Shown piece after piece: positions 302-56,891 of a stretch of DNA of 64,000 nt; positions within the stretch are counted from its first letter, which is position 1, and the number at the start of each line of letters is the position of its first letter. The stretch comes from Mobula hypostoma (Eukaryota), in NCBI RefSeq assembly GCF_963921235.1, contig NC_086108.1:32676001-32740000 (forward strand), written 5' to 3'. The position numbers and the translations under genes were made by a program. The notes below the pieces were generated by a model. It made no database searches and was not told where the DNA came from. It saw nothing but the letters and a program-made list of their open reading frames with translations.

Positions 302-696
302 GCCCCACCACCGCCTCATACCCCATCCGTTATTTATTTATATACAAACATTCTTTCTCTCTGTCTCCTTTTTCTCCCTCTGTCCCTCTGACTATACCCC
401 TTGCCCATCCTCTGGGTTTTTCCCCCCTCCCCCTTGTCTTTCTCCCTGGGCCTCCTGTCCCATGATCCTCTCATATCCCCTTTGCCTATCACCTGTCCAG
501 CTCTTGTCTCCATCCCTCCCCCTCCTGTCTTCTCCTATCATTTTGGATCTCCCCCTCCCCCGCCCACTTTCAAATCTCTTACTAGCTCTTCTTTCAGTTA
601 GTCCTGACGAAGGGTCTCGGCCCGAAACGTCGACTGTACCTCTTCCTAGAGATGCTGCCTGGTCTGCTGCGTTCACCAGCAACTTTTATGTGTGTT
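302..696 (+). mobile_element. Non-autonomous Penelope-like (PLE) 3' fragment with hammerhead motif
   Basis: Near-identical to the 3' non-coding part of the GIY-YIG element at 43620-45299; flanked by 10-bp direct repeat ACATAATGCT (292-301, 697-706). Confidence 0.85.
600..635 (+). ncRNA. Minimal type-I hammerhead ribozyme motif
   Basis: AGTC-CTGACGA-AGGGTCTCGGCCC-GAAA-CGTC-GACT: stem I AGTC/GACT, core CUGANGA and GAAA, short stem II, palindromic ACGT in place of stem III, GUC cleavage triplet. Confidence 0.75.
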
Positions 697-7900: not shown

Positions 7901-8279
7901 TAACAGATTTTTTTAACTTATTAAAACAATGTTACTAACTGATGTACCCAAAGCTGTGAGTGTGAATTTTGTAACACGAACGGTTCTAAAGAAAAGTCCT
8001 TATCTACACCCATTGTCATATAGATATCACGCCGTAAAGCATCTTCCATTTGTTTTACTGATGATAGGATACAAAGGATAATTAAAGTAATTAATGGTTA
8101 TTTTTAAGTTGAAGATATGATCAATACACGTACTCACCATCCAACAAAGTGATTAAATCAGTAAAAGAGAAATACTTTACCTGCGGAATAACGTAGTACG
8201 TAAACCAATTGTAAAGATATCACTTCAGGTACGAAAACAATGTTGATATTGAATCCAAAAGCGTAACAAATTCAAATAA

Positions 8280-8707
8280 GAGAAAACCCGCAGATGCTGG
8301 AAATCCACGCAACACACACAGAATGCTGGAGGAACTCAGCAGGCCAGGCAACATCGATGGAAAAAAGTACAGTCGATGCTTCCGACCAAGACCCTTCGGT
8401 AGGACTGGAGAAAAAAAAGGTGAGGGGTAGCGTTAAAGGTGGGGGAGAGGAGGGAGAAACACAAGTGATCGGTGAAACCGGGAGGGGAGGGGAGGGGTGA
8501 AGTAAAGAGCTGGGAAGTTGATTGGTGAAAGAGATACAGGGCTGGAGAAGTAGGAGTCTGACAGAGGACGGAAAGCCATGGAAGCAAGAAGGGAGCAGCA
8601 GCGGCGGAGGAGATAAGGCGAGAGGGGGAAAGGGGATGAGGAATGGTGAAGGGGCGGGCGGTGCCATTATCGGAAACTCAAGAAATCGATGTTCATGCCA
8701 TCAGGTT
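8280..8707 (-). mobile_element. PLE 3' fragment (end of GIY-YIG coding region, degraded hammerhead)
   Basis: GATGTTCATGCCATCAGGTT matches the end of the GIY-YIG ORF at ~44033-44051; same tail. Confidence 0.75.
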
Positions 8708-8849
8708 CGATTGCTTATAAAATACATAATCCTGAAGCTTCAAACGTTGAAACTATTAACAAACGAAATCTTTGCATAATACACTTGCTGTGGGAAAGAT
8801 TTAGCTCCATTCTTCACTAGTAGTATGACCTCAAAGATGCGGATTTTTT

Positions 8850-9290: not shown

Positions 9291-9333
9291 TTTACTATTT
9301 TCAGGAGTTTTGTGGCGGATATCAGATTCTCCT

Positions 9334-9436
9334 AACAACATACATCAAAGTTGCTGGTGAACGCAGCAGGCCAAGCAGCATCTATAGGACGAGGTGCAGT
9401 TGACGTTTCAGGCCGAGACCCTTGGTCAGGACTAAC
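9334..9436 (-). mobile_element. 103-bp PLE mini-insertion (hammerhead motif + tail only)
   Basis: Flanked by 12-bp TSD TCAGATTCTCCT (9322-9333, 9437-9448); sequence matches the PLE terminus. Confidence 0.85.
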
Positions 9437-9849
9437 TCAGATTCTCCTTCTAGTTTTCACTGTCCAGTTTCACTTCCTCATTCTCTTGCAAATCTTTAAT
9501 CTCAGGGCAATTTCTGCAGTTGGAACGCTTGCTGCGAAGAGTGCAAGTCCATTCCCAACACTGACCAAATGACAGGCAGTGGCCAGAGTTTGTTCCGGTC
9601 CCAGTAGGTGGACGCGGTCTGGACTGCTTCCGCCCCACTTGATAGCCAGTCTGATCCAAGAATCAGAGACTTAAATGGAAACCGTTCATCTTGCTAGTGG
9701 CTATCAGGGTGCCTTCATGAGCTAGTCCCACTTACCTGCATCTGGCCCCACATCCCGCCGAACCTTTCGGACCCATGCACCTATCCAATGTCTTTTAAAT
9801 GTCTGATTCCCTCTAATGGCCAAGTTTTGGATGGAACCAGACGGGTCAT

Positions 9850-16266: not shown

Positions 16267-16554
16267 ACTTGTGGCAGTAATAAACCAATATTGATTATCC
16301 TGTAGGACTTCTCTGAACAATAATCTTTATCAAAATCAGAAATGGGATTTCTAGAAATCTAAAATAATGGCAAAAAAGTGTCTGAAAGTCTCAGCAGCTC
16401 AGGCAACATCTGTGGAATGAGAAATAGTTAATTTTTCAGCTCTGGGATCCTTTGTCAGAACTGGGTATTTCATAAGTACACTTCTGACAGAGATAAATTT
16501 TCCATCAGTCATACTTCATTCCTATTTGGTATGTACAAAGATGTGATTGTAAGT

Positions 16555-17345: not shown

Positions 17346-19514
17346 TGGCAGGCATGACTTTGTGGCTGAAAGAAGGTTATAGTTGAGAAACACATTGTAT
17401 CAAAAGGACTGGCAGGTAGGCAGAGGGGATGATGTGTCATATGATCAAAAAGGTGTAGAATCCTTGTGGGAAGAGTAAACTAACTGCAAGGGTGAAAAGA
17501 CCCTGATGGGAGTTACATATAGGCCTCTGAACAGTAGCTAGGATGTAAGCTACAAGTTACAATGGGAGATAGAAAAGACATGTTAAAAGGGCAATGTTAT
17601 GGTAGTCATGGGAAATTTCAATATGCAGGTAGATTGTAAAAATCAGGTTGATGCTGGATCCCAAGAGAGAGAATTTGTAGAAAGCTTATGAAATGGCTCT
17701 TTAGAGTAGCTTGTGGTTGAGCCCACTAGAGGAAAGGTTATTCTGGGTTCAGTGTTGTTTAATGAACTGGATTTGAGCAATGATTGTTATATGATGGAAT
17801 TCACCCTGCAATTTGAGAGGGAGCAGCCGAAGTCAGATGTATCAATATTACAGTGGAGTAAAGGAAAATATAGAGACGTGACAGAGGAGCTGGCCCGCGT
17901 TGAATGGAAGGGGACACTAGCAGGGCTGACGGTAGAGCAGCAATGGCTGGAGTCTCTGGGAGCAATTCAGAAGGTGTTGGATAGATATATCCCAAAGAAG
18001 AAGTATTCTAAAGGCAGGATGATGCAACTGTGGCTGACAAGGGAAGTCAAAGACAGCATAAAAGCAAAAGAGAGGACATGAAATAGAGCAAAATTAGTGG
18101 GAAGTTAGAGGATTGGGAAGGTTCTAAAAATGAACAGAAGACAACTACCTCTTGCCTGTCCTAACCTCAATGCCAGTGTGTGAGACCTTCGGGTCGCTGG
18201 ACTGTCTATATTGGAAAATTTCTCTTGCACAGGTGACCATGAACTCCTCAATCACACTGATGCTGGGGAGTTTCAGTCTCTTTTCTTTCTGTACAAGGCG
18301 ATGCTGCTTGGGGTCCTAGGCAGACACAGCCACCTCTGTAGATGTTGACTGATTCTGCTCTCAAAGGTCTCACTGTTGACATTGGGACATCATGAACAAT
18401 GAGAGGCACAGGTCTGAACTATATATATATATATATTATTCACATATAAAAAGAGTAAAAGAAGGGGAAGAATAGTTACCAGACCACTGGAAAATGATGC
18501 TGGAGAAGTAGTAGTAGGGGACAAGGAAATGTCTGACACATTGCAAAATACTTATTGCATCAGTCTTCACTGTGGAAGACACTAGCAGTATGCTGGAAGT
18601 TCAAGAGTGTTGGGGGCAGAAGTGAGAGCAGTTGCTAATATTAGGGAAAAGGTGCTTGGGAAGCTGAAAGGTTTGAAGGTAGTTGAGTTACCTGGACCAG
18701 ATGGACTACACCCCAGGGTTCTGAAAGAGGTAGCTGAAGAGATCATGGAGGCATTAGTAACGGTCTTTCAAGAATCAATAAATTCTGGCGGCATGGTTCT
18801 GGAGGACCGGAAAATTGCAAATCTCACTCTGAGAAGGGAGGGAGGCAGAAGAAAGAAAATTATAGGCCAATTAGCCTGACCTCAGTGTTTGGGAAGATGT
18901 TGGATTCAAATGTTGAAGATGAGATCTCAGGATACTCAAAATAGGCTAAGGTCAGCATGATTTCCTTAAGGGAAAATCTTGCCTCACAAATCTGTTGGAA
19001 TTTGAGGAAATAACAAGCAGGATAGACAAAGGAGAATTGGTGGATGTTGTGTACTTCGATTTTCAGATGGCCTTTGACACATGAAGCTACTTAACAAGAC
19101 AAGAGCCCGTGGTATGAGAGGAAGGATACTAGTGTGGATAGAGCAGTGGCTGATTGGCGGGAGGCATAGTGTTGGAATAAAGGGAACTTTTCTGTTTAGC
19201 CTGTGGTTTTCTGCAGGGGTAGGGGTTTGGCCGCTTCTTTTTACATTATATGTTAATGACTTGGATGATGGAACTGATGGCTTTGTGGCCATTTGCGGAT
19301 GATATGAAGATTGTTGGAGAGGCAGGTAGTGATTAGGAAGTGGGGAGGCTGCCAAAGGACTCAGATTAGGAGAATAGGCAAAGAGGTAGCAGATGGAGTA
19401 CAGTGTCAGGAGTGTATGATTGTGCACTTTGGTAGAATGAATAAAAGCGTAGCAACACACGTCAAAGTTGCTGGTGAACGCAGCAGGCCAGGCAGCATCT
19501 CTAGGAAGAGGTAC

Positions 19515-19550
19515 AGTCGACGTTTCAGGCCGAGACCCTTCGTCAGGACC
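19515..19550 (-). ncRNA. Minimal hammerhead ribozyme motif
   Basis: Minus strand GGTC-CTGACGA-AGGGTCTCGGCCT-GAAA-CGTC-GACT. Confidence 0.72.
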
Positions 19551-20142
19551 AACTGAAGGAAGAGTTAGTGAGAGATTTGAAAGTGGGACGGGGAGGGGGA
19601 GATCCAAAATGATAGGAGCAGACAGGAGGGGGAGGGATGGAGACAAGAGCTGGACAGGTGATAGGCAAAAGGGATACGAGAGGATCATGGGACAGGAGGT
19701 CCGGGAAGAAAGACAAGGGGGGGGGAACCCAGAGGATGGGCAAGGGGTATAGTCAGAGGGACACAGGGAGAAAAAGGAGAGTGAGAGAAAGAATGTGTGT
19801 TTTTTATTTATTTATAATTTACAATTTATTTATTTATTTATTTTTATCCCCCCCCCCCCGCCCCTCGTACCCCATCTGTTATTTATTTTTATACACACTT
19901 TCTTTCTCTCTCTCCTTTTTCTCCCTCTGTCCCTCTGACTATACCCCTTGCCCATCCTCTGGGTTTTCCCCCCTCCCTTGTCTTTCTCCCCGGACCTCCT
20001 GTCCCATGATCCTCTTGTATCCCTTTGCCTATCACCTGTCCAGCTCTTGGCTCCATCCCTCCCCCTCCTGTCTTCTCCTATCATTTCAGATCTCCCCCTC
20101 CCCCTCCAACTCTCAAATCTCTTACTAGCTCTTCCTTCAGTT

Positions 20143-20178
20143 AGTCCTGATGAAGGGTCTCGGCCTGAAACGTCGACT
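20143..20178 (+). ncRNA. Minimal hammerhead ribozyme motif
   Basis: AGTC-CTGATGA-AGGGTCTCGGCCT-GAAA-CGTC-GACT. Confidence 0.75.
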
Positions 20179-22445
20179 GTACCTCTTCCTAGAGATGCTG
20201 CCTGGCCTGCTGCGTTCACCAGCAACTTTGATGTGTGTTGCTTGAATTTCCAGCATTTGCAGAATTCCTGTTGTTTGCGTGAATAAAAGCGTAGACTGTT
20301 TTCCAAACATGAAGAAAATTCAAAAATCTGAGGTGCAAAATGACTTGGGAGTCTTCGTGCAGGATTTCCTAGAGGTTAACTTGCAGACTGAGTCAGTGGT
20401 GAGGAAGGCAAATACAATGTTAGCATTCATTTCAAAAGGACTAGAATTAAAAAAAAAGCAAGAATGTAATGCTAAGACTTTATGAGGCACTGGTGAGGCC
20501 TCACTTGGAGTGACGCAAGTATTTTTGGGCCCCGTATCTAGGAAAAGGTGTGCTAACGCTGGCGAGGGTTCAGAGGAGGATCACGAGAATGATTCCAGGA
20601 ATGAAAGGGTTATTGTATGAGAGCATTTGATGGTTCTTGTCCTGTACTGATTGGAGTTTAGAAGAGTGGTGGGGGGAAAGAGGGAAGGGGAGGACTCTCA
20701 TTGAAGCATATCAAATGCTGAAAGGCTGAGATAGAGCGGATATGAAGAGGACATTTTCTATAGTGGGCTGTGTAGGACCAGAGAGAGGGTGCAACCTCAG
20801 AACAGAGGGGGAACAGCCTCAGAATAGAGGGGGATTCCATCTAGAATGGAGATGAGGAGCAACTTCTTTAGCCAGAGTGTGGTGAATCAGTGTAATTCGT
20901 AGCCACAGGTGGCTATGGAGGCCAGGTCATTGGGTATGTTTAAGGCAGAGGTTGATAGGTTCTTGATTAGTCAGTGTGTGAAAGGTAATGGGGAGAAGGC
21001 AGGAGAATGGGGTTGAGAGAGAAAATGGATCAGCCATGATGAAATGGCAGAGCAGAGCAGACTTGCTCGGCTGAATGTCCTAATTCTGCACCTACGTCTT
21101 TTGTTCTTATTGTTGAATACTAAAAAAATTCCTACATACCATATCTTGGAAGTTGGCACCCATGTTAAGTCAGAGGACCTGGATATTCCTTTCTCAATAA
21201 TGGCTCAACACAGAAGTGTACTTCAAAATGTTACATCGAGCCACATTCTCTTGGTTCATTGCCCTGGTTTCTACATTTGGCTTCAGAAATGGAAGTTGTT
21301 GTTACAAGAGCAGTGGCAGATGGAATACAGTGTAGGAAACTGTATGGTCATCAATGAAAGAAGATCACTGCTGTGAGCTTAACACCCCAAGCTACACAGC
21401 AGACCAAAAGGACAGGCAGGCGGGAAGAGTGGTTGTGGTGGCTTTATTGTTAACAATGAAATCAAATCCTTAGAAAGAGATGACATCAGATCAGAAGATG
21501 TAGAATCCCTGTAGGTAGAGGTAAAAAACTGCAAGGGTAAAAAGACACTGTTGGGAGTTATATACAGATCTCCCAACAGTAGCCAGGTTGTGGGGTACAA
21601 ATTAAAATGGAAGACAGAAAAGACATTTAAAAAAGGACAATGTTATGATTGTCATAGTGGAGTTCAATATGCAAGTAGATTGGGTAAAACAGGCTGGAGC
21701 TGGATTGCAAGAAGGAGTTTGTATAATGCCTATGAGATGGCATTTTAGAGCAGCTTGTGGTTGAGTCCACTAGAGGAATGGCAATTCTTGATTGGATGTT
21801 GTGTAGTGAACCAGATTTAAATAGAGAATCCTATGAGGTAGTGATCATAACATGATAGAACTCACGCTGCAGAATTTATCTTAAACTTCCGGTTTAAAAT
21901 GGCCCGACTGAAGACGGGTGACAGTTTACTGGTGGTTCATAAAGCAAGAAATACAATTAAGTGCTTTATTAATGTGGGAAAATTGTGATACATGATCACT
22001 GCACCGCAAACAATGAAAAGCTGAATGAAGGTGAAGCTGACTCGAGGGTCGAGGCATGCAGGTGTAATGCAAAGTCAAAGCAAGATTGAGGAGAAGTGGT
22101 TGGAGTGAGGTGGAGGCATGTTCAAGACAGAGTTGGAGCAAGTGGAGTGGAGAAAAATCGGAGTAGAGGAGTTTCAGAGCACTTCCACCTAAATCGAGAG
22201 TGAGGTCTGATCGATTTAAACACCGGGCCGATTTGAAAAGGTTGGGTACGGGCCGGAATGTGGAGATAGAGTCCAGGCCCAGAGCATATCAATGCAACAG
22301 GGCCTGGGTCCTAGCATGGGGAGCAACCTGTTGTTTGGATAATTTAAGCGCTGGACCAGATGGTTTGAAAAGGCAGGGTGTTGGGGCCGGAGGCCAGGGT
22401 TGGGCTGGTTTTGCTTGCTGCTCCACGAAATTTACTCCACTCTCC

Positions 22446-22751: not shown

Positions 22752-25700
22752 TGTTGTGTTCTGTATATGTACTGTGGGTTACTAAGAACAAACCATATTC
22801 TGGAAGAATTAAAACTAGAACTTTTATTTACAACAGCAAACAGCAACCATGTTTTTACCATACAGTTTCTAGATCATTCTGTCATTTCTGCGCATGCTCT
22901 GAACTCTGTCCAATCACATTCTTACATGTGACGCGTGATATCACCACTTCTTCCTTTCCTTAAAAATAAAAACAATTAGCAACAATAATTACAACAAATG
23001 CATTCTTTAACATGTCTCTATCAGCCTCTCTGGGGGTTTATGAACATGAGTAGACCTTTGAAGTGGTTCACACAGTTCTTGTGTTTCGTTGTTATTTTCA
23101 TGTGTTGTCTGGTCTGCAGCAGTTAACTGAAACTCTGAAGTTGGCTCTTTTTTGAGGTCTTTGCGATTTCTTCTTAACACTGCTCCTTCTTCTGTTTGGA
23201 CCATACATGATCTGGGTTGTATTTCTTCAAGTACTGTAGCTTTCTGTGTCCATGTTCTGTGTTCATTTTGTCTTGTAACCTCACTTCATCTCCTTGGTGC
23301 AGTTCAGGTAATGGACGAGAACATCTGTCAAAGTATGTTTTCTGCTTTGCTTTGTGTTCATCTTTCCATCTTTTCACTTGTTCACCTCCCTCTGTTCTCG
23401 GAAGACTCTCATCTATTGGCAGATTGGATCTTAAACGGCATCCCATCAAGAGCTGAGCAGGTGAAAATCCACATTCATGTAGAGTACTATGGTAGGCTAA
23501 CAAAGCTTTATAAAAATCACCTCCACTATCTTTTGCTTTGTGCATCAGTTTCTTGATTATCCCTACCGACTTTTCAACCAATCCATTGGACTGAGGGAAA
23601 AATGGACTAGATGTTGTATGAACAAAGCCCCATTCATGAGCAAAATGTCTCATACATTCACCATTGAATTGTGGACCATTGTCTGTGAAATCTTACCAGG
23701 TTCACCATGTCTGGAAAAAACTGATTTCATGCATGTAATTATGTTCTCTGTTGTTGTTCTGCTCAAACCGCACACTTTGGGATACAACGAGTAGTAATCT
23801 GTTATTAATAGATAATCTTTGTTGTCAGTTACAAAAAGATCAACGTCTACCTTCTGATAAGGTCTCTGAGGACTAGGATGTGGATGCAGTGGCTCCTTAG
23901 GGTTGTTAGGTTGGTATTTAAAGTATATTTAACAGGAAGACACCAGTTCTGCAATTTCTTAATTCATCCTGGGCCAAAACATCACTTCCCGCGACCTTCT
24001 CTTACACTTTTCGATACCTAGGTGGCCTTCATGAATTTTCCCAAGCATTTCTTTTTGGAGACTTTTAGGAATCACAATTTTGCTACCTTTGTACAATGTC
24101 CTATCCACAGCAGACAGTTCTGATCTGTGGTTCCAATAATCTTGTACTACTGAGGTACAGTCATGCCTATTATCTGGCCATCCATCCATCACCACTTGTT
24201 TTACCTGACTGAGAATTTTGTCCTCTGTCTCAAGACACAGCAGTCCCAACTTTTTGTGATTAACAGGTACAGTCTCTATGATCATATCAACGAATACCTG
24301 AACATCAATAGTGTCCCTGTGACCGTCTTTTGTTGTTGGATCCACGGCTCTGGAACGTGTCTCAGCCACGTACATGAATTTTCCAGGTGTGTATGACACA
24401 TTTCTTTGCAATTTGATCATCATTCTCTAAATTCGCAAAGGCCAGTCACTTAAAGGTTTGTGAAACAATGCAATCAGAGGCTTATGATAGGCTTCAACAT
24501 CAACACAAACTGATGAAATCTCTCACAAGCAAACATAATGCTGAGCAACTCTTTTTCAATGTGGGCATACGTTGTTTCTGGATCAGATAATGAATGAGGT
24601 GCATATGCCAGTGGTAGCTATTCCTGATCATGTTTTTGGAGTAATACTGCCCCTAAGCCTGCCTGAGATGCACACATGAGATTTTGATGTGTCTCTCAGC
24701 ATCACAGAATTTCAACACAGATTCCTTGGTGAGCACTTTCTTGAGATTTTGCCATGCCTTCTCCTGTTCATGATTCCAGTTCCATTCATTTTTCTTTTCT
24801 GTTAGCTACCTCAATGGAGCAAGCTGTTCCGAGAGATTGGATATGAATTTTCCCATATAGTTAACCATTCCCATAAACCTCTGAACATCCTTTTTACATT
24901 GCGGTCTTGGCATGTTCTCAATAGCAGAAACCTTCAATGGATCAGGACACACACCCTCATTGCTGATGATATCACCCACAAAGGCAAGTTCAGTCATCCC
25001 TAGCTGACATTTGTCTTTATTCAGCTTCAGGTTTGCATTGCGTGTTGCCTCTAAGACTTGTCTAAGTCTGGCTTCATGCTCTTGTTTAGATGATTCCCAA
25101 ACAATAATATCATCCATGGAAGTATCCACGCCCTCAATGTGCTCATACAGCATGTGAGTGGTTTTATGGTGCACTTCAGGAGCTGATGCAATTCCAAACT
25201 GAAGCCGAAGAAAACGGTATCTGGCAAAAGGAGTGTTAAGGGTACATAATTTTGAACTCGGTTCATCTAGTTTAAGTTGCTAGAATCCAGAGGATTCATC
25301 TAATTTACTAAAGTACTTTGCATTAGCAAACTGTGACATAATTCCTTCATGAGTAGGCAATTTGAAACACTCTCTTTTAATGGCTCGATTCAAGTCTCTT
25401 GGATCTAATCAAATCCTCAGTTTTCTATTTTTCTTATCAACAATAACAAATGAATTGACCCATTCAGTCGGGTTCATCAACTTTTTGTATGACTCCTAAC
25501 CGTTCCATTCTGTCAAGCTCTATTTTCAGTTGATCACGTAATGCAAAAGGTACTTTTCTACATGGATGTACTACGGGTGGCACTGTGTTGTCAATTTTAA
25601 TCGTGTGCTTTCCTGGAAGACAACCAAGCCCTTTGAACAAGTCCTCATACTCTTTCATCAAGTCACTTCTGATTCTGTGTCACCATCCAGGACTAAAACT

Positions 25701-27141
25701 CTTTTCACCAAATTCAGTCTCTCACAGGCAGATAAACCCAATATTAACTGTACATTCTTTGGCACCACCACAAATGAAAGCGTGTGCACCATATTTTTGT
25801 GTGATACTTTTGCCACACATGTTCCTTTAACTGGAATGCCCCTACCTGAATACCCAGTCACTTTCATATTTGTCTTACGTAACTTTGGTCTAGGCTTTAA
25901 TGCATCAAACTCAGATTCTGCAAGAACATTTGCTCGTGCTCCAGTATCCAATTTAAACAGAATAATGTTTTGGTTCACTTGTAATGGCATAGTCCAGTCA
26001 TTCTTACTTTGTTTGTTTTCACAAAGCACATCTATATAAAACTTCTCGCGTTCATTTTCAAGCACTGCATTTACGTGCTTTATTTCTTTCCTACTTCTGC
26101 AACAGCGTGAAAAATGATTACTCTTACCGCAGGTGTTTCACATTTTCCGATATGCTGGACACTTTTTTAGATGATGTTGCCATCCACAGCGATCACTAAG
26201 TTTTTTTTTCAGATGACGTCCTGCTCTCTGTCGGTTTCGTTGTCGCTGCATTATTTTTTCTAATATGTTCGCGCTTTACAGCGTCTAAACAGCCATTCTC
26301 GATAAAAAGTTCTTTTGCCTGTGACGTCACAGTCTCAGAAGCTTTGCACTGTGCCACAACTTTTTCCAAATTCTAATCTTGTTCTAACAGTCTTTCTCTC
26401 AGACCATTATCCAGAATGCCGCAAACAATTCTGTCTTTAACTAGAGAGTCTGTAAGCTCTGCAAACTCGCATCTTTTACTGTGGTTTCTCAACTCCGTAA
26501 CAAATTGATCAATCGTTTGACCAGGTCTCTGCCAACATTTGAAAAACCTATAGCGCTCATACGTCACATTACGCTTCGGTATACAAAATGCGTCAAATTT
26601 GTCAATTATCGCTTTTAGATTCAAATGATCTCCATTTTCAAAAGTAAAATGGTTATATACCTCAACTGCGTCGTCTCCTATTATGTGGAGTAGAATTGCA
26701 GCCTTAATTTTTTCTGTTTTATTATCTGCTTCTATTGCCGATAAATAAATTTCAAAACGCTGTTTAAATCTTTTCCAGCTTTCAGCTACGTTTCCAGTCA
26801 GCTGAAGCATCGATGGGGTTGCAAAACTTCCATTTTTAAAGCTGTTAGCAAACAATGAAAAAGTTTGCACTCTTTTTTTCGATTATCTTTGCTTCTCACA
26901 TGTTAGCAAAATGTATTATTCTTCCAGACCGACTTCTGACACCATGTTGTGTTCTTTATATGTACCGTGGGTTACTAAGAAGAAACCATATTCTGGAGGA
27001 ATTAAAACTAGAGCTTTTATTTACAACAGCAAACAGCAGCCACGTTTTCACCATACAGTTTCTAGATCATTCTGTCATTTCTGCGCATGCTCTGAACTCT
27101 GTCCAATCACGTTCTTACACATGATACGTGATATCACCACA
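22752..27141 (-). mobile_element. Full-length Ty3/Gypsy LTR retrotransposon, decayed
   Basis: 197-bp LTRs (22752-22948, 26945-27141), 5-bp TSD CTGTT, PBS TGGTGTCAGAAGT (26932-26944), polypurine tract beside the 3' LTR; gag (26373-26870), protease FKLDTGA, RT (SMDD for YMDD), integrase (HEGHLGIEKC; SSPFFPQSNGLVEK). Confidence 0.95.
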
Positions 27142-35921: not shown

Positions 35922-36270
35922 CTAATAGAGAAATAGATAAACGCCACAGAGGGCCACCAGTATGGGCAAGAATTTCAGCAGGATTGGCCTAGAGGCATTC
36001 TGCTGACCACTAGGAACCACGCGCGTTTTAGTGGGCTTGATAGTGCGGTGCCACTGTGTCAAGATGGTTTCCCGGGCTTTTGGCCATTTTCCAGGTCCCA
36101 TCAATCGAAACTGGTAAGGTGAGCAGGGGCCAAAGAAAACGTTAAATGCCAACTGTGGATCACTGAGGAGGAGGTGTTTGATGTTGGGTTTCACACCGAT
36201 CAGCTCAGCTATCTCATCCATGTAGGGTATGAAATCGACTTGAATGGTGTGTCTTTGGGAGGTGACGTAT
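35922..36270 (-). CDS. fmo5: FMO5-like, last coding exon (exon 9)
   Basis: Acceptor AG at 36271-36272; (R)[39 protein letters not shown]..; hydrophobic C-terminal anchor; TAG at 35922-35924. Confidence 0.93.
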
Positions 36271-37842
36271 CTTTTGCATGCAAAAAGAAACAGAGGGGAA
36301 TTAAAAAAGCCTTGCAGCATAAAACCAAAGGCAATACAATCTATATGTCTATAATCCAAAAATAGAAAAATAGTGAAAATCATCAGCATCAGCAGTTTAA
36401 CAGCAACTGCGGAGATAAACTGCATTCCTGTTAGCACCCTTTCATCAGAACTTCTTTGCTTCGTATGAAACTTCACCTACTTGGTGAGCAAGAAGTTTCC
36501 TTCTATAACGGGTTCAATTGCAACACTTGGGAGGCATTTAGATCTGCGCATGAAGGTTTGTAGCTTGGAGGGTTATGGGGTGAACGTGGGAACTGGGACT
36601 TGCGGGAGGAACACTGATCAGTATGGACCAATTGGGCTAAAGTGCAAGTTTGTGAGCTGTGTTACTTTAGGAATCTCTAGATTCTGCTTAGCCTTCTGAG
36701 TATTTCAAGTACTTCCTGTTTTACAAATCAAAACTGACTTGGCCTTGAATTTACAAGACCAAGTCTCGTCAGTGTTCAATGCAAAAAACACCCTTGCCGC
36801 ATGACAAATGAGGAATTAACTTTGTCTAGCGCCTCAGGATGACACTCAATATTGCATTTGCCCAGTGGTGAAGCTCGCACACTAAACAATACATTCATCA
36901 ACAGTCCCAACAAATTAACTACTCACTACCAGCAGCCAACTCCCATCATTATATCAACTCCAATGGAGAACATTTTGGATTATATAAACAGTGGAAGTCC
37001 CATAGGTCACACATGGAGATATGATTTACATTGAGATCTCATCTTTAAATGACAAAATACACAAAAAGAGTTCGAACAGATGGGGAATAAATAGGCCAGG
37101 CCCTGAAGTACAAGTTAATTACCATTTCAAAACTGTATATTCACTATTTATCTTATATAAATAGTCTCTCTTCCATAGCTTTTTTATAATAAATTATTTA
37201 CTGTCTCATTTTTTAAAATAACTATTAAATGCAGATGGAGCACTTGAGAAGCTATACAGGTCTCATCCTCATTTAAATCCTTTTAAATTAATTAATACTG
37301 TACTTGATTATTAGTTAAATCTGCACACTTCTAAGGGTGTTGTGAAATGTTGCTGCTGTAATGAAATGATTTCCCATCTGGGATTGATAAGTATTTATTA
37401 TTATTTTGGATTAGTCTGAAACAATGGGATTGAATGCAGTGTCTATTATGTCCTGAACACTGTGGTTTTAGTAGGGATTTCAGGTGGGCTAGAAGGTTAA
37501 GCTGAAGGAAAACTTAATGATAATGTACAAAAATTAAGGAGGTTAGTTGGTTTAAAGAAAGTGTTGGGAAAAAAATCCTTGGGTTCAGAGTCGACAATCA
37601 AAATGTACCACTTGAATGGACACAAAGAAAGTTGGAATACTGACAGTAACCAAATGGCTATAGTAAATGATTGTTTATGATACCTGAGGAAGGAGAATAC
37701 TGGCATTCACTGGAATTTGGATTGTTTACCTCTGGCTCTATGTATATTATTAACTAGACTTGTGGGTAGAAGCAATGAGAGTTAAATTTGCAGATGACAC
37801 AATAATGGCCATTAGTGTGAAACGTGAGTGAATAGTGATTAT

Positions 37843-38230
37843 AAACAAGAGATTTTGCAGGTGCTGGAAATTCAGAATAATCTGCAAAAAAAATACTGGG
37901 GGAATTCAGCAGGTCAGGCTGCATCTATGGAGAGGAATAAGGAGTTGATGTTTAGGGCCAAGAACTTTCATCAGCACTGGATAGGGAGGGACAAGAAGCC
38001 AGAATAAGTAGGTTAGGGGAAGGGAGGGAGTACAAGCTGGAAGGAGATGGGTGAAGCCAGGTAAGGAGGGAGGTAGGTGGGTTGAAGTGAGAAGTTGGGA
38101 GATGATAGGTAGAAAAATAAAGAACTGAAGAAGGAGGAATCTGGTAGGAGAGGAGAGTGAACCATGGGAGAAAGGGAAAGAGGGGCACCAGAGGAAAGTG
38201 ACAGGCAGGTGGGGAGAAGAGAAGGGGTAA
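37843..38230 (-). mobile_element. Older PLE 3' fragment (degraded hammerhead)
   Basis: Same tail architecture; minus strand CTGATGAAAGTTCTTGGCCCTAAACATC. Confidence 0.7.
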
Positions 38231-38803: not shown

Positions 38804-39713
38804 CTAAAAAAACCAAAACACCACATTAAAAGAATGGGGTTTACCTCAGTTAATGACTTAAATATAGTACAGTGCTAAATTAATTTGGGATGTGTTGCCG
38901 TAAATATACAGAGTGGTCCTGAGTGCCACAAGTGGCTAGCTGCAGACAGAATGGCTTTGACAGCCAGTGAGGTCCTCCAGTACCTCTCGTCACTCCCTTT
39001 CTCTTGCAGCCACCACAAGGCCACAGGATGATTATCACTGAACTGCCTTGTACAAGCTCAATGCACTGTGCAATGATTTGGTCCGTGGAACCACTATGCA
39101 AGGCAGCTATTCCTCTGTACCTCAGTACAACTGACAATAACAAACCAATTCCAATTTCACCTTGAGTGTCCGTGAATGTGTTTAACCACCTATGAATTAT
39201 TGAAATATTAAAATATTACGAAGTAATCAATAATTTTGAGCAAAGAAAAAAAACAGAAATCACAAATTTAATAATAATTGAACATATTTAAATTATTTGA
39301 AGTAAATGATAAGAGTCAACTAAGGATTGTCATGGCTGAGGTGGTGAGTGGCTTAGACCAGAATCCTTGATTAAATCCCTGGGGGTAGTTACTGTATTAA
39401 TATTTATTCTCTTTGTTTACTTCATTTTTCTTTGCCTTCTCAACTGTGTAACACTTTATAACATGCAATCTCCCCAAACAAGGGGAGAAATTATTTCTCC
39501 CAGAGAGCTGATAAATAATCTTTTAAGATGATGGTTTGATAGTTCTCATAGCAACCACATCTGCTAATTTGAGAGGCCATCCGAGGAGCTGCAGATTATC
39601 AATAAGAAATCCCCAAAATGATATCATGTCAACAACCAAGTTATGTTATCAATGAAAAATTCACACAATGCACATTATTGCTTTTTTCAGAAATGTCTGC
39701 ACTGCATAGGTAC

Positions 39714-40066
39714 CTTTAAAAACCCTTGTGGTCCAACGAGCCTGCATTTCAGATATTGGCATAATAGCTCCCACTGGCTGGATAAGACCAATGATGGCTA
39801 GTGTTGGCCGCTCCAGCTGAGGTGGAAAGACATTCTTATAAAGAGTGGCATGGTTTCTGTTAACTTTGATGACAGACTCATTCAGAAATGGGAAAGCAAA
39901 ACTGTATCCTGTTGCAAAAATAACCGCATCAATATCTTCCATGGTGTCATCTTCAAAGATGGCTGCTGATTCAGTTAACTGCTTCACATTAGGTTTCACA
40001 AGAACACGTCCGGACAAAATGCGATTTGGCAAATCGTCATTAACTGTTGGATGTTGGCTGAAAAAA
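39714..40066 (-). CDS. fmo5: FMO5-like exon 7
   Basis: [52 protein letters not shown] boundaries; FATGY motif. Confidence 0.95.
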
Positions 40067-41140
40067 CTGAAAAGAAAGATAAAATCCCATCTCCATCAAT
40101 TTGAGAGCATTAATATTTCAGAATTAATGCAGATGATTGATGAAATAATTAGATTGTACACTCTTACGGAGCGCTCTCATACAGCACTAGAGAATAATCA
40201 TTTCAGCAATGAGTGCAAAACTCAACTGCAGCATTTATCTGGTGAAAGATAGCCCTAACTGAATAAAAACATTTACATTGGTAACTATGTGCACAAGGTC
40301 ACATGAGTGTTTAACCAATAAAGAAAATGAGTTGAGATTCTGTTTAATTAGCTGATCAGAATCAAAATAAATATGACACATAAATGCACAGCAGTGATTT
40401 ATATGGGAAAGAGGAAAGAGTGGCCTGGGTGCCCATGGCATAGAAAATAAGTAAACGTCAGAGTATTGATTGGATTGGTCATCACTCAATGTTCCAATGA
40501 TTCTTGGTTCTTGAAGACAATTCAGGATCTGGGTCAGTCTTCCCCGGTATGGAACAAAGTTGCCCTAGTGAATGGTGCAGAGTAATAAGTAATGAAGAGG
40601 GCAAATGTCAGAATGAACTGGCCACAGATAAACTTGCGTTTAGGATTCTATCAACTCATTATTAAAAATAGAGTTAATCTTTCAGGTCAATGACTAGTCA
40701 TCAGTTCATGGGAATTCCTTCTGCTGGAGATAACCAGTTCAAGGGAACACAACTGAAAATAAACATGAAACCATTAAGGAGAAAAGCTAGGAGACACATA
40801 TTCACCCAGAATACAAGGGTTAAAAAATCTACAAAATGGAGGAAAAGATTGACTGGCAGTTGACTACCAAAGTGTATAGAGCTGATTTGAAATACTGTTG
40901 TTTCTCTCCCTTCACAAAGTCTGGCTGATATTTTGGGTACATCGAACATTGTCCATTTTATTTGCAATTCTCTAGCATTTGTTAAATACTAAATCATTCC
41001 TAAAGGCTTCACATATAAAATGTGAGATCCAGGCACATTCAAATGGGACACGTGGCCAAAAGAAAGCAAGGTATCAAAGAGCATTTTAAAAGAAGACTAA
41101 GATCAATTTCCTTTCCAGACAGGATGCTGGTATTACAGAC

Positions 41141-41569: not shown

Positions 41570-42925
41570 AACACAAGAGATCATTTAGATGCTGGAAATC
41601 CAGAGCAACACACACAAAATGCTGGAGGAACTCAGCAGATTAGGCAGCATCGGTGGAAATGAATGAACAGTCAACTTCGACTGAGACCCTTCTTCAGGAC
41701 TGAAATGGAAGGGGGAAAATACCAGAATACAAAGGTGGGCCGAGGGGAAGGAGGCTAACTGGAAAATGATGGGTGAAGCCAGGTGGGTGATGAAGGGCTG
41801 GAGAAGAAGGATTCTGATAGAAGAGGACCATTGGAGAAAGGGAAGAAAGAGGAGCAACAGGGGAGATGATAAGATGGAGAAGAAGAGGTAAGAGCCAGAG
41901 CAGGGAATAGAAGAGGAAAGAACAAGGGGAAAAGAGAAAAATATATCGGAAGGAGAAATACATGTTCATACCATCATATTGGAGGCTATCTAGATGGATT
42001 ATGAGGTGTTGAACCTCCACACAGAGTGGCTTCATCATGGCTAAAGAAGAGGCCATGGATCGACATGTTGGAACAGGAAAGGGAATCAGAATTAAAATGG
42101 TTGGTCACTGAGAAATTTTGTTTTTGGTGGATGGAGCAAAGGTACATCCCAATTTACATTGGGTCTCACCATGCAGGTAATAGAAATACTACACTTGCCC
42201 AACTACCTCCTCTCTGATCTCCATTTAGGGCTCCAAACAGTCATTCCAGGTGCAGCAATACTTTATCTGCAAATCTGTCGGGGCCGTCTATTGTATCTGG
42301 TGCTCTTGATGCAGCCTCCTCTAAAATGGTGAAACCCGACATAAATTGGGGGACCACTTCATCAAGCACCTCTGCTCCATCCTCCAAAAGCGATTATTTC
42401 CTGGTGGCTAACCATTTTAATTCCCGTTCCAACATCTCAGTCCATGAACTCCTCTTCTGCTATGATGAAACCACTCGCAGTGTGGAGGAAATACACCTCA
42501 TATTCCATCTGGGTAGCCTTCAACCTGATGGTGTGAACATCGACTTCTCCTCCTGGCAACTTCCCCCCTCCCCCTTCCCTCTTCTTCTATGCCCCACTCC
42601 GGCCTCTTACCTCTTCTCCTCATCTGCCTATCACCTGCCATTGGTGCCCCTCCTCCTTCCCTTTCTCCCATGGTCCACTCTTCTTTTCTACAAGGTTCCT
42701 TCTTCTCCAGTCCTTTTCCTTTTCCACCCACCTGGCTTCACATATCACCATCTACCTTGCCCTCCCTCCCTACTCCTCACCTTTTTATTCTGGAGTCTTC
42801 CTCCTTCCTTTCCAATCCCAATGAAGGGTTTCAGCTTGAAACGCCGACTGTTCATTCATTTCCATAGATGTTGCCTGATGTGCTGAGTTCACCCAGCATT
42901 TTGTGTGTGCGCTCAGGTTTTCCAT
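41570..42925. mobile_element. Older inverted pair of PLE fragments
   Basis: Minus arm ~41570-42170 and plus arm ~42190-42925; both carry GIY-YIG C-terminal remnants (HLIFHLGSLQPDGVNIDFS) and degraded hammerheads; no TSD found. Confidence 0.75.
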
Positions 42926-43681
42926 CTAAGTGTGTTTTGCGACGGACATGGACTGTGCCTTTAAAAGAGTGGGGGGAGAGAGAGAGAAGCTGACTACAGT
43001 ACTGCTGCCTGCTTCTGGGTCACTATGGTGACAGAGAGGCAGAGTTATGTGATGGACAGTTCGATGTTCATGGTTGCCGCACAGTGTGTTTATTTAAACA
43101 AGGTCAGATGACTCTCACGGACACAGTGGAACACCGATTAAGGCGACCGGTCAACGCGACACTGGGTGGAACTTTCGAGTGCCCACAAGGGTGGGTTGAG
43201 GATCGATCAGTGGCTATCACAGTGTGCAGAAGCGCTGACCCTGTGGAGGCTACCGCTGTGTCTACCCTTGCCTGGGTGGTAGCTTACCCTTGAAGACAGT
43301 CCCTTTTGTGATAAGCTACCGAGAGTGGATTCGGAGTCTGACGTTGGAAGACCAACGGCACCTGTTTACTTGTCCTTCTCCTATTGTGGATTTCACCTCG
43401 GCTCACAAACATCCCTCTCTCCCCCACCAAGTCCGTGCATTGAACCGAACTTTCTTACATTAGCATCGTAAGACTTTAAATCTTGCCACTTGAGCTTGAA
43501 GGAGTTTGGGAATTATATTTACCCACACACACACATATATATATATATATATACACATAACACTGCTAACTTTGGATTTACCTGGTTTAAGTTACTATAT
43601 TAAGTAGTTACTAATAAATCAACATACATCAAAGTTGCTGGTGAACGCAGCAGGCCAAGCAGCATCTATAGGAAGAGGCGC

Positions 43682-43717
43682 AGTCGACGTTTCAGGCCGA
43701 GACCCTTCGTCAGGACT
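43682..43717 (-). ncRNA. Minimal hammerhead ribozyme motif (sense to the FMO pre-mRNA)
   Basis: Minus strand AGTC-CTGACGA-AGGGTCTCGGCCT-GAAA-CGTC-GACT. Confidence 0.75.
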
Positions 43718-44010
43718 AACTGAAGGAAGAGTGAGTAAGGGATTTGAAAGCTGGAGGGGGAGGGGGAGATGCAAAATGATAGGAGAAGACAGGAGGGGGA
43801 GGGATAGAGCCGAGAGCTGGACAGGTGATAGGCAAAAGGGGATACGAGAGGATCATGGGACAGGAGGCCTAGGGAGAAAGACGGGGGGGGGGTGACCCAG
43901 AGGATGGGCAAGAGGTATATTCAGAGGGACAGAGGGAGAAAAAGGCGAGTGAGAGAAAGAATGTGTGCATAAAAATGAGTAACAGCTGGGGTACGAGGGG
44001 GAGGTGGGGC

Positions 44011-44337
44011 CTAGCGGAAGTTAGAGAAGTCAATGTTCATGCCATCAGGTTGGAGGCTACCCAGACGGAATATAAGGTGTTGTTCCTCCAACCTGAGTGT
44101 GGCTTCATCTTTACAGTAGAGGAGGCCGTGGATAGACATGTCAGAATGGGAATGGGATGTGGAATTAAAATGTGAGGCCACTGGGAGATCCTGCTTTCTC
44201 TGGCGGACAGAGCGTAGATGTTCAGCAAAGCAGTCTCCCAGTCTGCGTCGGGTCTCACCAATATATAAAAGGCCACATCGGGAGCACCGGACGCAGTATA
44301 TCACCCCAGTCGACTCACAGGTGAAGTGATGCCTCAC
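44011..44337 (-). pseudogene. PLE GIY-YIG endonuclease domain (5'-truncated element ORF)
   Basis: FTCESTGVIYCVRCSRCGLLYIGETRRRL..EHLRSV..PVASHFN..EEQHLIFRLGSLQPDGMN. Confidence 0.9.
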
Positions 44338-45164
44338 CTGGAAGGACTGTTTGGGGCCCTGAATGGTGGTAAGGGAGGAAGTGTAAGGGCATGTGTAGCA
44401 CTTGTTCCGCTTACACGGATAAGTGCCAGGAGGGAGATCAGTGGGGAGGGATGGGGGGGACGAATGGACAAGGGAGTTGTGTAGGGAGCGATCCCTGCGG
44501 AATGCAGAGAGAGGGGGGGAGGGAAAGATGTGCTTAGTGGTGGGATCCCGTTGGAGGTGGCGGAAGTTACGGAGAATAATATGTTGGACCCGGAGGCTGG
44601 TGGGGTGGTAGGTGAGGACCAGGGGAACCCTATTCCTAGTGGGGTGGTGGGAGGATGGAGTGAGAGCAGATGTACGTGAAATGGAACTCTGCTCTTAAAC
44701 GCATCTCCTCCATTTCACGTACATCTGCTCTCACTCCATCCTCCCACCACCCCACTAGGAATAGGGTTCCCCTGGTCCTCACCTACCACCCCACCAGCCT
44801 CCGGGTCCAACATATTATTCTCCGTACCTTCCGCCACCTCCAACGGGATCCCACCACTAAGCACATCTTTCCCTCCCCCCCCTCTCTGCATTCCGCAGGG
44901 ATCGCTCATTTTTATGCACACATTCTTTTTCTCACTCTCCTTTTTCTCCCTCTGTCCCTCTGAATATACCTCTTGCCCATCCTCTGGGTCACCCCCCCCC
45001 TTGTCTTTCTTCCAGGACCTCCTGTCCCATGATCCTCTCGTATCCCCTTTTGCCTATCACCTGTCCAGCTCTCGGCTCTATCCCTCCTCCTGTCTTCTCC
45101 TATCATTTTGCATCTCCCCCTCCCCCTCCAGCTTTCAAATCCCTTACTCACTCTTCCTTCAGTT

Positions 45165-45200
45165 AGTCCTGACGAAGGGTCTCGGCCTGAAACGTCGACT
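45165..45200 (+). ncRNA. Minimal hammerhead ribozyme motif
   Basis: AGTC-CTGACGA-AGGGTCTCGGCCT-GAAA-CGTC-GACT. Confidence 0.75.
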
Positions 45201-45394
45201 GCGCCTCTTCCTATAGATGCTGCCTGGCCTGCTGCGTTCACCAGCAACTTTGATGTATGTTGCTTGAATTTCCAGCATCTGCAGAATTCCTGTTGTTTGA
45301 GTTACTAATAAATGGTGGTTTTAACATCAAAACCAGTCTTCAGCTGTGTTCTGTTGCTGCTGGTTCTTTTAAACCATTGTGTTTACGTAACACT

Positions 45395-46744: not shown

Positions 46745-48430
46745 CAGTGCTGCGCAAAACTCTTAGATATACAGTACCTATAAAAATATTCACTCCCCAG
46801 GAAATTTTCATGTTTTATTGTTTTACAACACTGACTCACAGGGGATTTAATGTGGCTTTATTTGACACTGATCAACAGAAAAAGAATCCTTCGTGTCAAA
46901 GTGAAAACAGATCTCTACAAAGTGATCTAAATTAATTGCAAATATAAAACAAAATAATTGATTGCATAATTATTCACCCTGCCCTTTAATATGATACACC
47001 AAGTAATCACTGGTGCAGCCAATTGGTTTTAAAAGTCACATAATTAGTTAAATGGAGATCTGTTTTTGGAGACAAGGTGTTTCGATTGATTGTAGTAAAA
47101 GTACACCTGTATCTGAAAGGTCCAGCTGCTGGTGAGTCAGCATCCTGGCAAAAACTACACCGTGAAGACAAAAGATCGCTCCAAGCAACTCCATGAAAAG
47201 ATTATTGAAAAGCACAAGTCAGGAGATGGATAGGAGAAAATTTCCAAGTCACTGAATACCCCCTGGAGTACAGTTAAGTCAATCGTCAAGTAATGGAAAG
47301 AACATGGCACGGCAGTAAATCTGCCTCGAGCAGGCCGTCCTCAAAAACTGAGTGACCATGCAAGAGGGGACTAGTGAGGGAGGCCACAAAGAGAGCTATA
47401 ACAACATCTGGAGGAGTTACAGGCTTCAGTGGCTGAAATGGGAGAGATTGCATATACAACAACTGTTGCCCGGGTGCTTCACCAGTCACAGCTTTATGGG
47501 AGAGTGGCAAAGAGAAAGTCACCATTGAAAAAAATTCACATGAAATCTCAGCTGGAATTTGCCAGAAGGCATGTGGGAGAATCAGAAGTCAACTGGGAGA
47601 ACATTCTATGGTCTGATGAAATCAAAATTGAGTGTTTTGGCTGTCAGATTAAACACTACGTTTGGCTTAAGCCAAATACTGTACATCATCGAAAACACAC
47701 CATCCCTACCATGAAGCATGGTGGTAGCTGCATCATGCTGTGGGGATGCTTCACTGTAGTAAGCCCTGGAAGGTGTGTGAAGGTAGAGGGTAAAATGAAT
47801 GCAGCAAAATACAGGGAAATCCTGGAGCAAAACCTGATTCAGTCTCCCAAAGTCATGCAACTTGTTTTCCAGCAAGACAATGACTCCAAGCATAAAGCCA
47901 AAACTATACAGGAGTGACTTAAGAATAACAAAGTTAATGTCCTGGAACGGCCAAGTCAGAGTCCAAGCTTCAGTCCAATTGAGAAATTGTAGCTGGATTT
48001 GAAAAGGGCTGTTTGCTCACGATCCCCACGCAATCTGACAGAGCTTGAGCTGTTTTGTAAAGAAGAATTGGGAAAAATTGCAGTGTCCAGATTTGCAAAG
48101 CTGATAGAGACCTAGCCACACAGGCTCAAGGCTGTAATTGCTGCCAAAGGTGCATCTACTGAATACTGACTTGAAGAGGGTGAGTAATTTTGCAATTATT
48201 TTGTGTTTAATAACTGTAATAAATTTAGACCAATTTGTAGAAATTTGTTTTCATTTTGATACAAAAGAGTCTTTTCAAGTTGATCATTGTCAAAAAAGCT
48301 AAAGTAAATTCATTGTGATTCAATGTTGTAAAACAATAAAACATGAAAATTTCCATGGGGGTGGGGTGAATACTTTTTATAGGCACTGTATATATATCTC
48401 TAGAGTGCCTAAGACTTTTGTATAGTACTG
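46745..48430. mobile_element. Tiny Tc1-type MITE whose centre hosts the Tc1 insertion
   Basis: Left CAGTGCTGCGCAAAACTCTTAG (46745-46766); right CTAAGACTTTTGTATAGTACTG (48409-48430); imperfect inverted repeat. Confidence 0.6.
46772..48388 (+). mobile_element. Tc1 DNA transposon, full length, inactivated transposase
   Basis: TA TSD, ~210-bp imperfect TIRs starting CAGT; ILWSDEIKIE..PTMKHGGSCIMLWGCF..FQQDNDSKHK..PSQSPSFSPIE (DD34E type); stops and frameshifts. Confidence 0.95.
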
Positions 48431-51871: not shown

Positions 51872-52192
51872 TTCGGAGAAGGAAGTCTGAGAATCGGAGC
51901 GGGAGTGCAGAGGAAGCCATTTTTGAATTTTCCTGTTTTTTTTCCCATTGGCGTTCAGAGAGGCGGGACTGCACGGGTGTGTGACGTCGGGCAGTGAAGC
52001 GCGGAAGATTTAAAAGGACAGAAATCCTGCTTCGGGTTTAATTTGGAGAAGGAAGTCTGAGAATCGGAGCGGGAGTGCAGAGGAAGCCATTTTTGAATTT
52101 TTCGGTTTTTTTTCCATCGGCGTTCAGAGAGGCGGGACTGCGCAGGCGTGTGACGTTGGGCAGTGAAGCGCAGAAGATTTAAAAGGAACAGA
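51872..52192 (+). repeat. Tandem duplication (period 170 bp) in the CR1 5' UTR
   Basis: GGAGAAGGAAGTCTGAGAATCGGAGCGGGAG... starts at 51875 and 52045. Confidence 0.9.
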
Positions 52193-55100: not shown

Positions 55101-55447
55101 TCATCGGACAAAGTCAGCATGGATTTGTGAAAGGAAAATCATGTCTGACGAATTTCATAGAATTTTTTGAGGATGTAACTAGTAGAATGGATAGGGGAGA
55201 ACCAGTGGATGTGGTATATTTGGATTTTCAAAAGGCTTTTGACAAGGTCCCACACAGGAGATTAGTGTGCAAACTTAAAGCACACGGTATTGGGGTTAAG
55301 GTATTGATGTGGATAGAGAATTGGTCGGCAGACAGGAAGCAAAGGGTGGGAATAAATGGGACCTTTTCAGAATGGCAGGCAGTGACTAGTGGGGTACCGC
55401 AAGGCTCAGTGCTGGGACCCCAGTTGTTTACAATATATACTAATGAC
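51872..55447 (+). mobile_element. CR1 LINE with intact 5' end, 3'-truncated
   Basis: ORF1 from ~52329: CxxC + leucine zipper, SGNH esterase (IRDSIVRG, HIGTND, DGLHLN); ORF2 APE (NARSIRNK, GITETWL, MGDFN, SDH) and RT up to GVPQGSVLGPQLFTIYTND; few stops. Confidence 0.95.
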
Positions 55448-56748: not shown

Positions 56749-56891
56749 CTGTTTTGCTTGTTGACTGATTTCAACTGCAAGGTCACTCCCAGAGTTTCCA
56801 ATTCCGACTATTACCACTCTTTTCCCTTCGAATTGTTGGGGTCCTTTGTAATCTTTACTATGCATGTATTGACCCTTGAACTTTTCTATAC
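56749..56891 (-). CDS. fmo5: FMO5-like exon 5 (143 bp, absent from the ORF track)
   Basis: ccccag|GT..CAG|gtgagg; [48 protein letters not shown] contains the FMO signature FxGxxxHxxxY and NADPH-binding GxGxxG. Confidence 0.96.

Follow-up and report, generated by a model that had tools for sequence, protein, structure and literature searches.

The window, that is, the whole 64,000-nt stretch of Mobula hypostoma DNA analysed here, contains a flavin-containing monooxygenase gene (35922-56900, minus strand, with exons near 56880, 41307, 39661-40095 and 35922-36476) together with the remains of several mobile elements. A long terminal repeat (LTR) retrotransposon remnant occupies 22752-27140, and its 196-nt direct repeats, at 22752 and 26945 and 93% alike, enclose gag-, protease-, reverse transcriptase (RT)- and integrase-like frames. 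A LINE remnant at 52586-55561, consisting of a GDSL-esterase ORF1 and an AP endonuclease frame, is preceded by a 170-nt tandem duplication (51875-52192), and a Tc1-like transposase fragment lies at 47402-47917. The feature studied in this work is a minimal type I hammerhead motif located at 600-635 of the plus strand, which was detected both by pattern search and by a structural descriptor. Helix I is formed by nucleotides 600-603 and 632-635, and it is followed by the core CUGACGA (604-610), an extra A at 611, helix II (GGGU/GCCC, 612-615/620-623) with a 4-nt loop, the GAA triplet (624-626) and a palindromic ACGU (627-630). Cleavage is predicted after C631, the position already given in the first-pass annotation.

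In order to count the copies of this motif, the window was searched with a 25-nt core pattern allowing one mismatch at most. Six matches were found (604+, 9405-, 19522-, 20147+, 43689- and 45169+), whereas the expected number from 100 shuffles was 0.00. A structural descriptor that is blind to the family (helix I of at least 3 bp, the core, helix II of at least 3 bp and a palindromic helix III) recovered exactly five copies, at 600, 19515(-), 20143, 43682(-) and 45165, compared with 0.05 per simulated window in 40 simulations. These are the same five copies that had been described as intact in the first-pass annotation, and the six listed there as degraded all align with them. The total is therefore 11 motifs per 64 kb, five with a complete core and six decayed, and the description of the family as dense was borne out. 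The type I topology (helix I enclosing the core CUGANGA, helix II, GAAA and the NUH triplet) is present in five of the 11 copies. All five intact copies carry the extra A that corresponds to position 611 of the first copy, and in all five the palindromic ACGU takes the place of a helix III proper. The motif is the minimal variant and not the canonical type I form with contacts between loop 1 and loop 2.

Three variable positions had been noted among the intact copies (the N of CUGANGA, a G.U in stem I and the edge of stem II). They vary as described, but the change at the edge of stem II turns the normally conserved pair G10.1-C11.1 into G.U in four of the five intact copies; G-C is kept by the fifth, at 600, and by the distant relatives described below. 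The predicted energy of helix II is -2.0 kcal/mol with G.U and -3.7 kcal/mol with G-C. C>T at a CpG accounts for two of the three changes, among them the one that gives G.U at 10.1-11.1. In the search with Rfam models, no family reached the gathering threshold in the window and none of the 24 matches up to E 10 was a hammerhead. The microRNA-like matches returned by Rfam were discarded, since they correspond to inverted arms of the insertions. No match to the motif was found in viral contigs.

Six young copies of the sequence carrying the motif form four insertions, each flanked by a target-site duplication (10, 15, 14 and 12 bp); by chance, a duplication of 10 bp was reached in 5 of 1993 random zone pairs. 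The first insertion (302-696, plus strand) is a solo terminal repeat (pLTR) of 395 nt that is tailless and starts at the position of the ORF stop, with its 10-bp duplication at 292-301 and 697-706. The second (19453-20279) is composed of two inverted arms, a tailless left arm (19453-19800, minus strand) with the hammerhead at 19515-19550 and a G.U in helix I, and a right arm (19846-20279, plus strand) with the hammerhead at 20143-20178 and a 39-nt tail at about 20241-20279. The 15-bp duplication (19438-19452 and 20280-20294) surrounds both arms. The arms are separated by about 45 nt of AT-rich, TTTA-like repeats (19801-19845), a filler that is absent from the other copies. The third insertion (43620-45299) includes the longest young copy (43620-44685, minus strand), which is 5'-truncated and contains the end of the ORF, the UTR, the hammerhead (43682-43717) and a tailless end. 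Its inverted arm (44686-45299, plus strand) comprises 222 nt of the ORF, the UTR, the hammerhead (45165-45200) and a 37-nt tail at about 45263-45299, and it has lost about 500 nt through an internal deletion at 44907/44908, with a 3-nt common word at the junction. The two arms are 99% alike in their ORF pieces (BLAST) and 97% in their repeats, and a 14-bp duplication (43606-43619 and 45300-45313) surrounds both. The inverted arm begins 23 nt further upstream than its partner (44686-44708). The fourth insertion is a 103-nt mini copy (9334-9436, minus strand) with a 12-bp duplication (9322-9333 and 9437-9448), which starts 3 nt before helix I and whose hammerhead (9398-9433) shows a G8>C change in the core.

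Two classes of 3' end were distinguished in the young copies, ending 65-68 nt (four copies) or 103-105 nt (two copies) past the predicted cut, and in each inverted pair one arm bears the extension of 37-39 nt. The 5' ends are ragged, lying 3, 250, 297, 298, 479 (the arm with the internal deletion) and 968 nt before helix I. The predicted cut site is internal in all six young copies, 65-105 nt from their 3' ends. Hence, the proposal of the first-pass annotation that these copies were processed by the ribozyme found no support in their structure: with their ragged 5' ends, duplications, inverted partners and tails, they have the anatomy of truncated Penelope-like elements (PLEs).

The coding remains upstream of the motif are best preserved in the longest young copy, where an open frame at 44014-44685 (minus strand) encodes a PLE linker of the CX4CxxC type (CKRNKCYTC) and a GIY-YIG endonuclease with CCHH-type residues (VIY-CxxC-YIG and two later histidines), as judged from the translation, Pfam and its relatives. 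The Pfam GIY-YIG match had an E value of 0.026 and was below the cut-off. Helix I of the hammerhead sits 294 nt behind the stop of this frame on the same strand, and the intervening UTR of about 294 nt is pyrimidine-rich. The best relatives of the frame were 93% identical in Mobula hypostoma itself, 76-78% in Hypanus, 66% in Rhincodon and 56% in Chiloscyllium, and those of rays and sharks extend upstream into RT motifs. A protein search without profiles gave 7,560 clusters, and 158 related proteins were taken for motif counts. Among these, all 16 relatives of at least 750 aa had DKG, the RT motif [YF]IDD and the linker zinc finger. No relatives of the endonuclease were found in viral and prokaryotic genome collections. 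The copies within the 64-kb window are truncated and include neither a reverse transcriptase nor a full-length element, for which reason we infer a master element. A CX2-5CxxC linker is a mark of Neptune and Nematis, is common to Naiad and is absent in Penelope and Poseidon (Craig et al. 2021, PMC8557442); by its linker motif, the carrier is likely to be a Neptune-type PLE. Two public ray gene models (P0002 and P0005), which bear the names of a kinase-domain and a chitinase-domain isoform, consist almost wholly of the PLE ORF and are likely chimeric annotations.

The motif had been described as always lying near the 3' end of a GIY-YIG element or its derivatives. Endonuclease-coding remains were indeed found upstream of five of the 11 copies (43682, 45165, 42817, 41669 and, weakly, 8371), but the other six have only the terminal repeat or part of it. 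Among the older copies, one of an older subfamily (8270-8714, minus strand) retains the last ORF codons, the UTR, a decayed hammerhead at 8371-8406 and the tail. Two others are inverted with respect to each other: 41587-42144 (minus strand), with an endonuclease remnant at 41944-42144 and a decayed hammerhead at 41669-41701, and 42163-42909 (plus strand), with a remnant at 42163-42559 and a decayed hammerhead at 42814-42850. A further decayed hammerhead (37943-37978, minus strand) was recognized by its alignment to the intact copies, and in the most decayed one (16426-16462, minus strand) the similarity appears to begin at helix I. No convincing target-site duplication was found at the four older sites.

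The young copies cover 3,005 of the 64,000 nt, or about 4.7% of the window. They are 88.5-97.2% identical, which makes the earlier description of the family as recently active a weak one and indicates that the burst was not very recent. Substitution is slow in sharks and rays, and this would make the burst older still. Abundance was assessed in one DNA run, possibly the source of the window, in which 295,121 contigs fell on positions 43600-44700 (1.1 kb). The summed contig depth, which is no copy number and pools other subfamilies, averaged about 4.6 million over 8 UTR bins and about 4.1 million over 17 ORF bins, dropped toward the 5' end and reached its maximum (10-12 million) over the hammerhead. 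Loose ends of contigs occurred at 44016-44017, where the ORF stops, and at 43717, the outer edge of helix I; this is compatible with subfamilies that have a common ORF and hammerhead block and different UTRs in between. No depth step was seen at the end of the ORF in this run. At the level of this depth, which pools subfamilies, no family that lacks the ORF and has one fixed 5' end predominates. As a rough estimate, the 11 motifs per 64 kb and the summed depth, set against 8-18 for single contigs, suggest a copy number of about 10^5 or more.

One important question is whether the short copies represent a retrozyme-like system, as the first-pass annotation held, in which a non-autonomous unit is transcribed, excised by its hammerhead, circularised and re-inserted by the PLE protein. 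Six of the 11 copies have no coding remains, and non-LTR retrozymes have been reported in one chondrichthyan with a mean consensus of 363 bp, close to the 395 nt of the solo repeat (Li et al. 2026, 10.64898/2026.07.22.740005). Under a published model (PMC4209133), a ligated circle would likewise give rise to copies spanning the cut site. A run guessed to be RNA is also rich in this stretch (17,770 contigs, of which 84 reach into the tail), which is no proof of transcription. However, none of the 11 tandem-repeat rows (periods up to 500) contained the motif and the spacings between copies are dispersed; in the paired copies the arms are inverted, so that a transcript holds one sense hammerhead. 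No copy begins or ends at the cut site, and the depth of the ORF in the DNA run is about that of the UTR. Moreover, described retrozymes bear canonical type I hammerheads (PMC7229834), while the motif found here is the minimal PLE type. As the copies form no tandem array and are not delimited by the cut site, and as the depth does not change abruptly where the ORF ends, a retrozyme-like origin appears very improbable, and this part of the earlier proposal was abandoned in favour of truncated PLE insertions.

The catalytic competence of the motif was then considered. The pattern of variation among intact copies does not testify to selection: the motif varies as much as its flanks (5 of 36 columns among young copies, compared with 44 of 256 in the upstream flank and 9 of 61 in the downstream flank), and the five copies had been chosen for their intactness. 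The variation among the young copies is neutral decay, as expected after insertion. With the window copies alone, pair counts for covariation were not above those of shuffles. A wider comparison was made with 16 metagenome loci carrying a related endonuclease, in which the downstream region was examined. The motif was present near the endonuclease in five of them, with a whole core in three and decayed in two, all from one related cluster; seven of the 16 had nothing nearby and four had less than 190 nt downstream. Loci L001 (3500-3535) and L002 (1678-1713) carry the core, the extra A and the ACGUC of the window motif unchanged, 130 nt downstream of the endonuclease, with helices that differ in sequence but pair; L015 has an inverted hammerhead pair (841-872 and 269-300) with a helix I of 2 bp, and the hammerheads of L004 and L010 are decayed. 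In these distant relatives, with 43-44% protein identity, both sides of helix I pairs are changed. After the addition of three metagenome rows, 88% of the cells pair and the covariation score was 0.42, compared with 0.18 in shuffles (0 of 500). Since the five metagenome loci with the motif form one related cluster, the covariation reflects about two independent lineages. At the sequence level, the fold thus appears to be supported by compensatory changes in a distant relative, over about two lineages.

The folding stability of the motif was no better than that of shuffles (z from -0.96 to +0.52), so that energy lends it no support. The predicted monomer fold is an inactive rod in which the core GACG/GAUG pairs with the CGUC of the cut triplet, a conformation that in the folding model could act as a built-in off switch. 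The predicted optimum for two strands is not a double hammerhead, the ACGU duplex contributing just -1.7 kcal/mol. These inactive predicted shapes of both monomer and dimer, together with the G.U at 10.1-11.1 in four of the five intact copies, are what would be expected if the motif no longer cleaves and has been retained at the beginning of the ORF in another role, as a promoter, a coding segment or a site of protein binding. In agreement with this, an uninterrupted frame extends from helix I across the tail; in Anolis, hammerhead mutants insert unimpaired in vitro and the ends of RNA reads do not fall at the cut (PMC11167929), and just one of nine Xenopus dimers was cleaved (Li et al. 2026, 10.64898/2026.07.22.740005). 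But the open frame through the hammerhead lacks an ATG and had no match among the 158 related proteins, and the Anolis motif cleaves once protein is added (PMC11167929). In addition, the catalytic core and the cut triplet are identical in the lineage at 43-44% protein identity, in which the helix strands are different. A motif that has lost cleavage altogether is therefore rather improbable, and a weak hammerhead that depends on conditions is preferred. The insertion at 43620-45299 lies inside an intron of the flavin monooxygenase gene, with the intact hammerhead at 43682 in the sense orientation of the gene. That an intact sense hammerhead is tolerated in that intron fits a weak, conditional ribozyme.

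Another question is whether some of the short copies reflect the 5' ends of RNAs rather than premature arrest. Synthesis primed internally on the 5' pLTR could run off at helix I or the ORF stop, if one of these marks a transcription start or the boundary of an exon, and would yield SINE-like mini copies and solo repeats. The beginning of the mini copy (9334-9436) is 3 nt away from helix I, where the copy at 16430 seems to begin, and two other copies begin within about 5 nt of the ORF stop. Two copies at each place may mean defined boundaries rather than random truncation, although there are only two cases of each, the copies are not independent and chance is possible. In nine of the 11 copies, the first base of helix I falls on the A of a YYANWYY word, after a pyrimidine tract ending in YAG (584-603 and equivalents). 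YYANWYY is the initiator consensus, and a pyrimidine tract followed by YAG is the consensus of a 3' splice acceptor. The word is present five times in the 394-nt repeat, however. Loose ends at 43717 were found in 586 contigs, but their sequences are purine-rich on the plus strand with an agreement of 0.39, as the UTRs of other subfamilies would be, and no splice-like joint fell at the edge of helix I among 15 of 1,023 joints. The inverted copy in the distant locus L015 starts about 15 nt upstream instead. The intron of Penelope in Drosophila virilis reaches as far as the 5' edge of helix I (PMC4209133) and lies close to an internal promoter (PMC2377424). The possibility that the window copies hold an intron between the ORF stop and helix I was considered as well; an acceptor-like end is present, but the donor GT was missing in the copies examined by eye, leaving a weak lead. 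An RNA boundary at these positions is a tentative explanation for some copies, somewhat less improbable than the loss of cleavage, and early arrest of a truncated PLE remains the preferred origin.

Taken together, the motif is very probably a minimal type I hammerhead located in the pLTR of an endonuclease-bearing, likely Neptune-type PLE, and the window copies are 5'-truncated and most likely dead on arrival. The identification as a minimal type I hammerhead of a PLE, made in the first-pass annotation, agrees with the published consensus and with the location behind the endonuclease frame. By analogy with the Anolis PLE work, the protein of the element would nick AT-rich DNA, and reverse transcription would start inside the element RNA at two nearby sites, giving the tailless and the tailed ends. 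Synthesis would then pass back through the uncut hammerhead and usually stop early, producing copies of 0.1-1 kb, sometimes with an inverted partner; every copy would thus carry the ribozyme passively and decay neutrally afterwards. In the master element, the hammerhead would be a weak, conditional ribozyme, with no helix III of its own and a predicted misfold of the monomer, and its cleavage would require either a dimer, formed in a pLTR-ORF-pLTR transcript, or the protein of the element.

A bolder reading can be considered, in which the ray genome holds some 10^5 or more hammerheads, among the largest loads of any vertebrate, a protein-assisted cut removes the capped leader and so acts as a switch between translation and template, and the mini insertions map two internal priming sites and an RNA boundary. 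We regard this reading as speculative and improbable, more so than either the RNA boundary or the loss of cleavage taken separately. This kind of system has been known since 2014, and the present results therefore change little; the residual interest lies only in the very high copy number and in the possible RNA boundary at helix I. For annotation, it matters that young copies could be labelled as SINEs and that this ORF has found its way into gene models of related rays. With its many natural copies, the family also offers a very large body of data on whether PLE hammerheads cut in vivo and on the origin of the tail and of the inverted arm. In the literature searched, no paper was found on hammerheads in rays or sharks or on this ray family.

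Comparison with known systems places the family among the PLEs. It resembles non-LTR retrozymes (Cervera and De la Pena 2020, PMC7229834; Li et al. 2026, 10.64898/2026.07.22.740005) in the non-coding unit of 300-400 nt, the type I hammerhead and the kinship to PLE terminal repeats, but retrozymes are head-to-tail tandems released as circles, whereas the window copies are single or inverted and truncated, and keep pieces of the ORF. The C-terminal GIY-YIG domain with CCHH and the CX2-5CxxC linker are shared with Neptune-type PLEs (PMC8557442, PMC3846280), and in the same sources PLE insertions show the pLTR, the inverted 5'-truncated partner, the 30-40 bp tail at one end, the duplication, the internal deletion and the solo pLTRs. 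The differences are that the window has no full-length copy or partial tandem and that its duplications are of 10-15 bp, compared with 8-10 bp in rotifers (Arkhipova et al. 2013, PMC3846280; Craig et al. 2021, PMC8557442).

PAc, a Poseidon element of Anolis carolinensis (Frangieh et al. 2024, PMC11167929), is similar in its terminal hammerhead, AT-rich targets, retention of the uncut hammerhead and two 3' ends that lie one tail-length apart. In PAc, the tail was traced to two internal start sites of reverse transcription, uncut RNA was the main template and cleavage occurred only with protein (PMC11167929). PAc is a member of Penelope/Poseidon with an ORF that begins inside the hammerhead, where no usable ATG frame was found in the window family; the mechanism was tested for PAc, and for the window family we only infer it (PMC11167929).

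The closest likeness is to the minimal hammerheads of PLEs (Cervera and De la Pena 2014, PMC4209133), with which the motif shares the type I topology, CUGANGA with an extra base between 9 and 10.1, GAAA-C-G-U-C without loop 3, the palindromic 15.2/16.2, a helix I of 4-5 bp and a U-rich 5' flank. These hammerheads also occur mostly as single dispersed copies or opposite-strand pairs, by the thousands in each vertebrate genome (PMC4209133). Helix II is short in the window (4 bp) and closed by G.U in most young copies, in which it differs from that consensus (PMC4209133). The searched part of the PMC4209133 supplement has no entry for shark, skate, Callorhinchus or Leucoraja. Judged by the density in the window, the family would be far more numerous than the 4,000-9,000 copies reported from coelacanth and Xenopus (PMC4209133).
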